The position numbers and the translations under genes were made by a program. This document shows positions 1-2,565 of a DNA stretch of 2,565 nt, in pieces. Under the pieces are notes generated by a model. The model was given only the letters and a program-made list of their open reading frames with translations, searched no databases and was not told the DNA's origin. Positions within the stretch are counted from its first letter, which is position 1; each line of letters starts with the position of its first letter. The DNA is from Escherichia coli (GTDB lineage: Bacteria; Pseudomonadota; Gammaproteobacteria; Enterobacterales; Enterobacteriaceae): assembly GCF_003334305.1 (NCBI RefSeq), contig NZ_QOWS01000054.1, one strand, 5' to 3'.

Positions 1-657
1 GAGGAGAACCCGCATCACCTGCACCAGCCGTACCGGCTGCCGGGGCAGCAGTATGATAAGGAGTCGGGGCTGTACTATAACCGTCACCGGTACTACGATC
101 CGTTGCAGGGGCGGTATATCACCCCGGACCCGATTGGGTTGAGAGGTGGATGGAATATGTATCAGTATCCGTTGAATCCCATACAAGTGATAGACCCAAT
201 GGGGTTAGATGCGATTGAGAATATGACATCAGGTGGACTAATTTATGCCGTATCTGGTGTACCTGGATTGATTGCTGCAAACAGCATTACTAACAGTGCT
301 TACCAGTTCGGTTATGATATGGATGCTATTGTTGGCGGAGCTCATAATGGGGCCGCCGATGCAATGAGACATTGTTACTTGATGTGTCGAATGACTAAGA
401 CATTTGGATCAACAATAGCTGACGTGATAGGTAAAAATCATGAGGCGGCAGGGGATAGACAAGGTCAGCCAGCTAAAGAAAGAATCATGGATCTTAAAAA
501 TAACACTGTCGGTATTGCTTGTGGCGATTTTTCTGCCAAATGTAGCGATGCATGTATTGAAAAATATAACACTGGGCAACTCTTCGGGTTAGATGGTATA
601 AAAGCAGATAATCCAATAAAAGCAAAGCAAGGGAGTTCAGATGCTTCAAATTATTAG
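1..657 (+). CDS. rhsE: Rhs-family polymorphic toxin, 3' portion (5' end lies upstream of the window): terminus of the conserved RHS core followed by a variable C-terminal toxin domain
   Basis: Frame 1 is open from nt 1 with no stop until TAG at 655-657, so the gene starts upstream; the ORF-track start at 103 is only an internal TTG. Translation from nt 1 reads [69 protein letters not shown], the hallmark end of the RHS repeat-associated core (YD repeat, then the DPxGL demarcation). The first 200 nt are GC-rich (about 60% by eye) and composition drops immediately after DPMGL, as expected at an Rhs core/CT junction. The symbol is a tentative recollection of K-12 synteny (rhsE-ydcD-yncI-ydcC), not verified. 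Confidence 0.85.
193..207 (+). other. DPxGL motif (DPMGL) marking the boundary between the conserved Rhs core and the variable C-terminal toxin domain
   Basis: Codons 65-69 of the frame-1 translation encode D-P-M-G-L, preceded by the conserved PxxxxDPxGL context ([13 protein letters not shown]). In Rhs/YD-repeat proteins this motif delimits the core from the polymorphic CT and is associated with autoproteolytic release of the CT (established knowledge of the family). An upstream DPIGL at codons 43-47 belongs to the conserved core. Confidence 0.7.
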
Positions 658-1123
658 AGGCAAACTTGTCATTTTTTTAATTACCCTTTGTTTATTTGTT
701 GTTTACCTTGGGTTTGATAACAATTCAAATTCTGACATCGTATTTTATGGACATAAAACACCAAAGAGCGTTGAGATATATCTTTCTGAAAAAAATATTA
801 TTTATAAAATAATTAATGACCAAAAAATTAGTAGAGGGAATGGTCATTTTATAAGTATAATGGTTAATAATTACAGGACGCACTGTGGAGTGGTTGATAT
901 AAATCTTAATTTTTTCAATGATATTCTTTATAGCGTGCGATTAAAAAACATTAGTAAACTGGAGAATATGGAGTTCTGCGCTAAAAAACAACGGGTGTAT
1001 TTTAGTGATAAAAACAAGAAGGCTAGTTATAAAATAATTAATTATGGAGACTATTACGATGTTGATTATTATGATAACAATTTGAAAAATGAAGTTTTTG
1101 ACTGGATTGGTAAATGGTCATAA
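641..1123 (+). CDS. ydcD: Putative Rhs-toxin immunity protein (160 aa, AT-rich, N-terminal hydrophobic segment; uncharacterised)
   Basis: ATG at 641 is preceded by a good RBS (GGGAG at 631-635, 5-nt spacer). The ORF overlaps the toxin stop by 17 nt, the typical arrangement for a toxin/immunity pair. A 160-codon ORF in DNA this AT-rich (well under 30% GC by eye) is unlikely by chance. Residues about 8-25 ([18 protein letters not shown]) form a hydrophobic stretch after a positively charged start. The symbol is a tentative recollection of K-12 synteny; immunity function is inferred from position only. Confidence 0.7.
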
Positions 1124-1202
1124 TGAACAACACCAGAAAGAGAAAAATATAAAATACATACAGAAAGACATGAGAGCAAGGGACGGGGCAGGGCAAGATC
1201 AT

Positions 1203-1230
1203 GAAAATTGTGATGTAAATCACGATTTTC
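1203..1230. promoter_or_regulatory. Near-perfect 12-bp inverted repeat with 4-nt loop (GAAAATTGTGAT-GTAA-ATCACGATTTTC); contains a CRP-like TGTGA-N6-TCAC core; could also act as a weak intergenic hairpin or terminator
   Basis: Seen directly: 1203-1214 pairs with 1219-1230 with a single G·U position. The core TGTGA (1209-1213), 6 nt, TCACG (1220-1224) matches the CRP consensus TGTGA-N6-TCACA at 9 of 10 positions. It lies in the 180-bp gap between the immunity gene and the H-rpt transposase start. The stem is AT-rich, so terminator function would be weak. Either function is speculative. Confidence 0.25.
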
Positions 1231-1259: not shown

Positions 1260-2480
1260 AAATTTAACCTTTGGAATAACTAAAAAGATAAAAAAGGACC
1301 CAGGTGAGTATTCAAAGTTTGCTTGATTATATTTCAGTGATCCCTGATATACGACAACAAGGAAAGGTTAAACATAAATTATCTGCTATTTTGTTTCTCA
1401 CCGTATGTGCAGTAATTGCAGGTGCCGATGAGTGGCAGGAAATTGAAGATTTTGGACATGAAAGACTTGAATGGCTAAAGAAATATGGTGATTTTGATAA
1501 TGGCATTCCGGTCGATGACACCATTGCACGCGTTGTGAGTAACATTGACAGTTTGGCCTTTGAAAAGATGTTTATTGAATGGATGCAGGAGTGCCATGAA
1601 ATCACTGATGGTGAAATTATAGCAATAGATGGAAAGACCATAAGAGGCTCCTTTGATAAGGGAAAAAGAAAAGGAGCAATCCATATGGTGAGTGCATTCT
1701 CGAACGAAAATGGTGTTGTACTGGGGCAGGTGAAAACGGAAGCCAAAAGTAATGAGATTACAGCCATTCCAGAGTTGCTTAACCTACTGTATTTAAAGAA
1801 AAATTTGATAACCATTGATGCTATGGGCTGTCAGAAAGATATCGCTTCGAAGATCAAAGATAAAAAAGCAGATTATCTTCTGGCAGTAAAAGGCAATCAG
1901 GGGAAATTACATCATGCATTCGAGGAAAAATTTCCTGTAAATGTGTTTTCTAATTATAAAGGCGATTCGTTTAGTACGCAGGAGATAAGTCATGGAAGAA
2001 AAGAAACACGTTTGCATATTGTCAGTAACGTAACGCCTGAACTTTTGTGATTTTGAATTCGAATGGAAGGGATTAAAAAAGCTTTGTGTAGCATTGTCAT
2101 TCAGGCAGAAGAAAGAAGATAAATCAGCAGAAGGTGTAAGCATCCGATATTATATTTCATCAAAGGATATGGATGCTAAAGAATTTGCACATGCTATCAG
2201 AGCGCACTGGCTGATCGAGCACAGTCTTCATTGGGTGTTAGATGTAAAAATGAATGAAGATGCCAGCCGGATAAGAAGAGGAAACGCAGCCTAAATAATA
2301 TCTGGAATAAAGAAGATGGCACTGAATTTATTAAGAGATTGCAAAGACATTAAGGGTGAAGAGGAAAAGAAAGAAGGCTGCGTTAAACACAGGGAAAGAT
2401 CATCAGAAGTTCACTTTTTGTACTAAATAATTCGCATTTTATGTTTAAAAATTGAGATATTCCTCATTACCTGAAGCTGT
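1260..2480 (+). mobile_element. Remnant H-rpt (ISAs1-family) insertion sequence; boundaries approximate
   Basis: The transposase pseudogene fills most of this span, consistent with the roughly 1.2-1.3 kb size of H-rpt elements. I could not identify convincing terminal inverted repeats by eye, so the ends are estimated from the ORF position and from the upstream homology shared with the second copy (ATAAA(A/T)AAGG before each start codon). Confidence 0.4.
1304..2426 (+). pseudogene. yncI: ISAs1-family (H-repeat / H-rpt) transposase gene, inactivated by a +1 frameshift and an in-frame stop
   Basis: Track ORF 1304-2050 (GTG start, RBS AAGGA at 1294-1298) is collinear with H-rpt transposases (…ISVIPDIRQ…GIPVDDTIARVV…AIDGKTIRGSFDK…AIHMVSAFS…KSNEITAIPELL…IDAMGCQKDIA…ADYLLAVKGNQ…). 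It stops at TGA 2048-2050 just after a TTTT run at 2043-2046. Deleting one T restores [24 protein letters not shown]…, which continues into track ORF 2094-2294 (…[29 protein letters not shown]). That ORF ends at TAA 2292-2294, where homologs have a sense codon (GNAAE…). The same frame continues IISGIKKMALNLLRDC… to TAA 2424-2426, giving about 374 codons, the expected ISAs1 transposase length. The symbol is tentative. Confidence 0.8.
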
Positions 2481-2532: not shown

Positions 2533-2565
2533 ATGGAACTTAAAAAATTGATGGAACATATTTCT
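2533..2565 (+). CDS. ydcC: 5' end of a second ISAs1-family (H-rpt) transposase gene, continuing beyond the window
   Basis: ATG at 2533 follows an RBS-like AAGGTG (2522-2527). The 11 codons in the window, MELKKLMEHIS, match the characteristic N-terminus of E. coli H-repeat-associated proteins and align with the pseudogene N-terminus (MSIQSLLDYIS). Only 33 nt are visible, so the call rests on the N-terminal match and context. The symbol is tentative. Confidence 0.55.
   Translation, partial: MELKKLMEHIS

Follow-up and report, generated by a model that had tools for sequence, protein, structure and literature searches.

Frame break in the yncI transposase pseudogene of Escherichia coli: a probable C insertion beside an unchanged T run

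The window, meaning here the whole stretch of 2,565 nt of Escherichia coli DNA that was analysed, very probably holds the known pseudogene yncI, a decayed copy of ISEc26 (ISAs1/H-repeat) located downstream of ydcD and of the Rhs toxin tip with which ydcD is partnered. The base that breaks the reading frame can be assigned with high confidence to a C inserted at position 2042, between codon 246 (GAA) and codon 247 (TTT), and the mutation is in all likelihood old and inherited. That yncI is broken is already known from the K-12 annotation, from PGAP and from the literature, and the base-level assignment to C2042 is the only refinement over what was known. The gene has been described as a pseudogene that carries a premature stop in MG1655, as intact in O157:H7 Sakai and as annotated among the ISEc26 family transposases (2024; PMC11540155), and it has been used as a neutral integration site in metabolic engineering (PMC11566304).

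Over positions 2034-2050, the window reads CGCCTGAACTTTTGTGA, with TTTT at 2043-2046. In translation, frame 1 starts with a GTG at 1304 and runs for 248 codons to a TGA stop at 2048-2050, while frame 2 is closed by a TAA at 2031-2033 and is then open from 2034 to the TAA at 2292. Since frame 1 ends at 2047 and frame 2 opens at 2034, a +1 shift, i.e. one extra base, has to lie within 2034-2047. The two pieces match the ISAs1 transposase profile NF033564, frame 1 (1304-2047) at profile positions 1-218 (E 1.7e-87, 293.5 bits) and the +1 frame (2049-2291) at positions 225-300 (E 1.1e-26, 93.8 bits), both scores being above the 70-bit cut-off of this profile, on which an intact ortholog reaches 415 bits. 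Because the two pieces match one and the same profile in consecutive order, the +1 frame break is real, far beyond chance. The preliminary description of this DNA, which had reported a +1 disruption of an H-rpt/ISAs1 transposase at 2034-2050, is thereby borne out, as regards the disruption by the frame ends and the in-order profile matches, and as regards the identity of the protein by the scores above the cut-off. It had also named, as an outcome that would refute it, that the two ORFs are normally separate genes. For these ORFs, of 248 aa and 66-81 aa, the probability of such an arrangement is practically nil: the intact homologs are single ORFs, with most of the 120 listed among 7,999 homologs being single proteins of about 375-390 aa that carry both Pfam domains. 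In the intact ortholog, DDE_Tnp_1_assoc (PF13808) covers residues 8-94 and DDE_Tnp_1 (PF01609) residues 102-342, the latter domain spanning the junction.

The window matches many complete E. coli chromosomes at 100% identity and contains, in order, the Rhs tip, ydcD, yncO, yncI and the start of ydcC (Table 1). The C-terminal Rhs tip (window 103-657), which PGAP presents in some strains as a DUF6973 domain-containing protein, begins directly past the conserved PDPIGL-type core boundary (about 124-141). Its stop is overlapped by ydcD over 17 bases, as expected of a toxin/immunity pair, and yncO, on the opposite strand, overlaps ydcD at its 3' end as well as the left inverted repeat that belongs to the yncI element. 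An Rfam scan of the window found no RNA family. Besides, the window is without a G at 1299/1300 that K-12 and O157 both have (GGAC-CCAGGTG versus GGACGCCAGGTG), a site in the spacer that separates the GTG start codon of yncI from a Shine-Dalgarno-like AAGGA. On the 5' side of the ydcC-type start (2520-2535), the window reads AAGGTGAAC-AAATG and K-12 AAGGAGAACAAAATG, and the ribosome-binding site of the window's ydcC-type gene looks weakened compared to that of K-12. In a window-identical genome, this second transposase is annotated as a pseudogene with an internal stop (locus positions 8533-9669), while it is intact in K-12.

Table 1. Features of the window, with their positions, strand and the source of each assignment
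Feature	Position	Strand	Source
RHS element core protein, 3' end	to 657		annotation of strain 503025 (window-identical)
ydcD	641-1123		annotation of strain 503025, window coordinates
Small ORF (yncO in K-12)	1038-1223	-	annotation of strain 503025
Left terminal inverted repeat GCAGGGCAAGATCATGAA; belongs to the yncI-carrying ISAs1 element (ISEc26 type)	1188-1205	+	pairing in the intact O157 element
Pseudogene 'ISAs1 family transposase; frameshifted; internal stop'	1304-2430		PGAP annotation of strain 503025
yncI codons 1-246, read in the original frame from a GTG start; DDE_Tnp_1_assoc domain, D109, D172	1304-2041	+	translation, NF033564 match, Pfam of the intact ortholog
Inserted base C, causing the +1 frameshift (probable)	2042	+	absent in the O157 ISEc26 allele and outgroups; present in K-12 and 2,131 genomes
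T4 run, unchanged versus functional alleles; Phe247 codon and first base of the Cys248 codon	2043-2046	+	TTTT in all intact genes aligned
yncI codons 247-329, shifted into the +1 frame; conserved block with E305	2043-2291	+	translation, NF033564 match
GAA (Glu330, intact) to TAA nonsense change	2292-2294	+	alignment with O157; exact window allele in 2,192 genomes
One GGGTG unit versus intact GGGTGGGGTG; 5-bp deletion, second frameshift	2354-2358	+	alignments; +5 bp form in 310 genomes
Last ISEc26-homologous stretch, now in the third frame	2359-2391	+	alignments
Degenerate repeat ACAGGGAAAGATCATCAG that matches the yncI left end at 14/18; putative left end of the next H-rpt (ydcC/ISEc5 type)	2389-2406	+	alignment; inferred
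Second ISAs1 transposase, start	2533 onward		annotation of strain 503025
ydcC-type ISAs1 transposase start (MELKKLMEHIS)	2533-2565	+	annotations and alignment to K-12

The assignment of the extra base arises from DNA alignments. The intact allele of O157:H7 reads CCTGAA-TTTTGTGA, compared to CCTGAACTTTTGTGA in the window and in K-12, with four Ts in both, and the sole difference between GAA-C-TTTT-GTGA in the window and GAA/GAG-TTTT-GTGA in the intact genes is C2042. The DNA of two intact outgroup genes, of Salmonella enterica and E. coli respectively (about 80% protein identity), was taken to polarise the insertion; aligned to the window, both read GAG-TTTT-GTGATTTTGAG, with no C. Comparison with orthologous loci, which the preliminary description had itself proposed, thereby yielded an intact O157:H7 ortholog lacking C2042. 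The same description had placed the shift exactly at TTTT, as a homopolymer indel. The insertion of a non-repeated base beside a run is mutationally less common than slippage of the run, so that the prior favoured this T-run idea; nevertheless, the run is T4 in the window, in the ortholog and in the two outgroups, its length being the same in the mutant and the ancestral forms, and the location has to be moved to C2042.

The distribution of the alleles was assessed over 5,426 complete genomes with queries of 80-81 nt, for which a single difference gives an identity below 99%. The window allele (C followed by T4) was found in 2,131 of them, including K-12 MG1655 and BL21(DE3), the intact allele (T4, no C) in 311, a T5 allele, with a T where the window has the C, in 8, and the C+TTT form, which is the one repaired in the preliminary description, in 0. 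The segment is held by about 2,506 genomes, and the broken allele is present in about 85% of the gene-bearing ones. The O157:H7 lineage retains the intact form, the intact-allele genomes among the matches listed (40) being O157:H7 or strains without a listed serotype. A scan of the GTDB species representatives, in which 0 or 1 extra base was allowed, returned only four short contigs, all with the C allele. These contigs, of 2.6-3.5 kb, carry the yncI site in MAGs labelled Sporosarcina, Bacillota, Flavobacterium and Planococcaceae, and are almost certainly E. coli contamination in the bins.

The removal of one T, suggested in the preliminary description, does restore the frame but not the ancestral sequence: the ancestral peptide is PEFCDF, with Phe247, as opposed to the PELCDF obtained from that repair, and the corresponding DNA is not carried by any of the complete genomes. 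The 130-nt query with the repaired form, GAACTTTGTGA, as a candidate ancestral state gave no exact match among 2,512 genomes, and this candidate was rejected. The closest intact proteins share one reading at the site, and the PELCDF repair looked homolog-like because PDELIDF stands at this site in more distant paralogs, of the ydcC/yhhI type and with an identity of about 58-60%.

The possibility that the gene is really intact and that the break is a sequencing or assembly error at the homopolymer, also raised in the preliminary description, has a vanishingly small probability. While homopolymers are a classic source of indel errors on some platforms, the extra base is here a C, with the run length unchanged, and the identical allele is found in all the 2,131 independently assembled genomes just mentioned, K-12 MG1655 and BL21(DE3) among them. 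In addition, the C insertion is tightly linked with the TAA at 2292 and with the 5-bp deletion. The 5-bp-deleted form was detected in about 2,207 genomes (1,879 exact and 328 in the 95-99% identity band), and, for each of the three sites, about 310-325 genomes are of the intact type. The genuine decay put forward in the preliminary description, together with its second lesion at 2292, is upheld, and two lesions can be added to its list: 5 bp are deleted at 2354-2358, and the 3' end is truncated after about 2391.

More precisely, the homology to ISEc26 stops in the alignments at about 2391, with about 27 codons and the right inverted repeat missing. In the intact O157 element, the left 18-mer pairs with the right end, 17 of the 18 positions being complementary, at a distance of 1,271 nt. 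The left repeat has one exact copy in the window, and no right inverted repeat was found in the window or downstream of it in the window-identical genome, so that what remains is the left repeat only (1188-1205) of an insertion sequence that, when complete, has repeats at both ends. A degenerate repeat at 2389-2406 overlaps the end of the ISEc26 homology by 3 bases (ACA); it abuts the truncated yncI and leads into the ydcC-type element, and its likeness to the yncI left end suggests that it may be the left end of this ydcC-type H-rpt. When the ydcC element was searched for a pair of terminal inverted repeats, none was called, the left end being too degenerate. Apparently, yncI lost its last 27 or so codons and its right repeat at the place where the ydcC element abuts.

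The existence of the T5 allele, GAATTTTTGTGA, in 8 genomes, along with the general concentration of indels in runs that is known from mutation spectra, could suggest another course of events, in which slippage from T4 to T5 made the frameshift and the first T was later changed into C in most lineages. Such a course is unlikely in view of the haplotypes. Position 1844 is a G in O157, in the window and in K-12, whereas a derived SNP private to the T5 group and its background, 1844T, is common to all five of the T5 genomes examined, where it sits on a haplotype resembling that of K-12, and 1844T was also detected with C2042 in at least 15 genomes. The ancestral 1844G was seen only with the C (window, K-12) or without the insertion (O157). 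The haplotypes observed at 1844 and 2042 are (G, no insertion), (G,C), (T,C) and (T,T), and the ancestral one that would combine 1844G with T5 is not among them. If T5 were ancestral, the change from T to C would have to have occurred more than once, or to have spread by gene conversion. From this set of haplotypes, it follows that T5 is in all likelihood a single, secondary C>T change, and its candidacy as an intermediate was rejected on the ground that the 1844T background also occurs with C. The order of events would thus have been the C insertion, followed by the G>T change of position 1844 and, within one small sublineage, by the C>T change of position 2042. The five T5 genomes examined, from China, Spain and elsewhere, all have the allele at the pptA locus (locus position 4041), and EC4, the sole one compared over the full region, possesses every derived base specific to K-12, such as 1236T and 1341C. 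This haplotype argument could be blurred if gene conversion took place between the copies at the two chromosomal loci.

Two overlapping frames at a U-rich sequence also bring to mind programmed recoding, and the preliminary description had listed a slippery site among its options. Under this hypothesis, a +1 slip of the peptidyl-tRNA-Leu from CUU to UUU would produce the full transposase at a controlled level. The sequence CUU_U permits +1 slippage in principle, as in the CUU-UGA of prfB, and the IS1 and IS3 families are established to regulate their transposases via frameshifting. To our knowledge, these IS1/IS3 frameshifts are of the -1 type on A-rich motifs, and no such mechanism is described for ISAs1. 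The likeness to the programmed sites (prfB, +1; IS1/IS3, -1) is superficial and recoding here is extremely unlikely: the functional family members are single ORFs without the extra base, neither the site nor the two-frame arrangement being conserved in them, and the codon that follows CUU is the sense codon UUG rather than a stop. No Shine-Dalgarno-like stimulator was visible by eye upstream of the shift site. Moreover, the downstream frame is itself broken rather than open to its full length, since a slipped ribosome would meet the TAA at 2292, and then the 5-bp deletion and the missing 3' end.

Regarding the consequences for the protein, DDE transposases rely on a conserved acidic triad for catalysis, and each of D109, D172 and E305 was found in 113 of the 114 homologs aligned. 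In the window, the two domains that an intact transposase carries on a single polypeptide of about 370-390 aa are split by C2042, the TAA at 2292 and the 5-bp deletion, and the triad is not found on one chain, D109 and D172 being encoded in frame 1 and E305 in frame 2. With its two pieces scoring above the cut-off of an ISAs1-family profile, the window copy is a pseudogene of that family. The insertion of C2042 puts the rest of yncI into the +1 frame, and the 248-aa product that could still be made keeps the N-terminal DDE_Tnp_1-associated domain, D109 and D172 but lacks E305; as this residue is missing, the product would presumably be unable to work as an active DDE transposase. Together with the stop, the 5-bp deletion, the 3' loss and the absence of a right repeat, this would leave neither a working gene nor an element able to move as a unit, and a loss of yncI function is predicted on the basis of the sequence. 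It is conceivable, although very unlikely, that the 248-aa fragment, with its DNA-binding-type domain and its two acidic residues, is expressed and acts in trans as a regulator or inhibitor of its ISAs1 neighbours (ydcC) or of rearrangements at the Rhs locus. If true, such a role would explain the spread of this broken allele. The wide distribution is more simply accounted for by the vertical inheritance of a neutral remnant.

The module made of the Rhs tip, ydcD, yncO, yncI and ydcC, with the same yncI lesions, was found in different strains at two chromosomal loci, one being that of a vgrG-linked full-length Rhs gene adjoining yafV, and the other the rhsE locus adjoining pptA (ansP...pptA). 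The presence of the same lesions at both loci indicates that they are older than the movement or copying of the module between them, and it is this sharing, in conjunction with the share of gene-bearing genomes that are affected, which points to an old and inherited mutation. In K-12 MG1655, the annotated gene order is rhsE-ydcD-yncO-yncI(b1459, pseudogene)-ydcC. This RhsE-linked yncI has the same allele as the window (C insertion, TAA, 5-bp deletion and 3' truncation) and the same neighbours, the two sequences showing about 25 base differences over the aligned 2.5 kb. They differ in location, the K-12 gene lying between ansP and pptA, whereas in the window-identical genomes examined the module lies at the vgrG-Rhs locus adjoining yafV-ivy-fadE.

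The closest intact counterpart is the transposase WP_000027427.1 of O157:H7, annotated as 'ISAs1-like element ISEc26 family transposase' with 390 aa, which occupies the orthologous place downstream of ydcD/yncO at the yafV locus and has the same left inverted repeat. Apart from the lesions, it is separated from the window by a handful of base differences. In contrast to the window, this ISEc26 copy has no C, a GAA instead of the TAA, GGGTG twice, a full 3' end and a right inverted repeat. In the ISEc26-intact strains, it is ydcD that is frameshifted instead. Thus, in the O157-type strain 272, ydcD is annotated as frameshifted (locus positions 2163-2644) and ISEc26/yncI is intact, a case of reciprocal decay; the Rhs gene of this strain is an N-terminally truncated fragment, which is preceded by another ISAs1 element. 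The H-rpt/ISAs1 elements ydcC (ISEc5 type), yhhI and ybfD belong to the same family (NF033564; DDE_Tnp_1_assoc and DDE_Tnp_1) and share the association with Rhs, but as proteins they are only about 58-60% identical, with PDELIDF at the site.

The biological weight of the finding is small, as yncI represents a textbook decayed IS gene in an Rhs locus. Since the lesion is real and, in all likelihood, ancient, annotation pipelines are right to leave yncI unrepaired. The case also illustrates that a frame-restoring edit picked by eye can yield the wrong ancestral protein, here a Leu in place of Phe247. Finally, the state of yncI, intact or broken, cleanly splits the O157:H7-type lineage from most other E. 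coli, and this split may account for the surfacing of 'yncI' in pangenome association studies.
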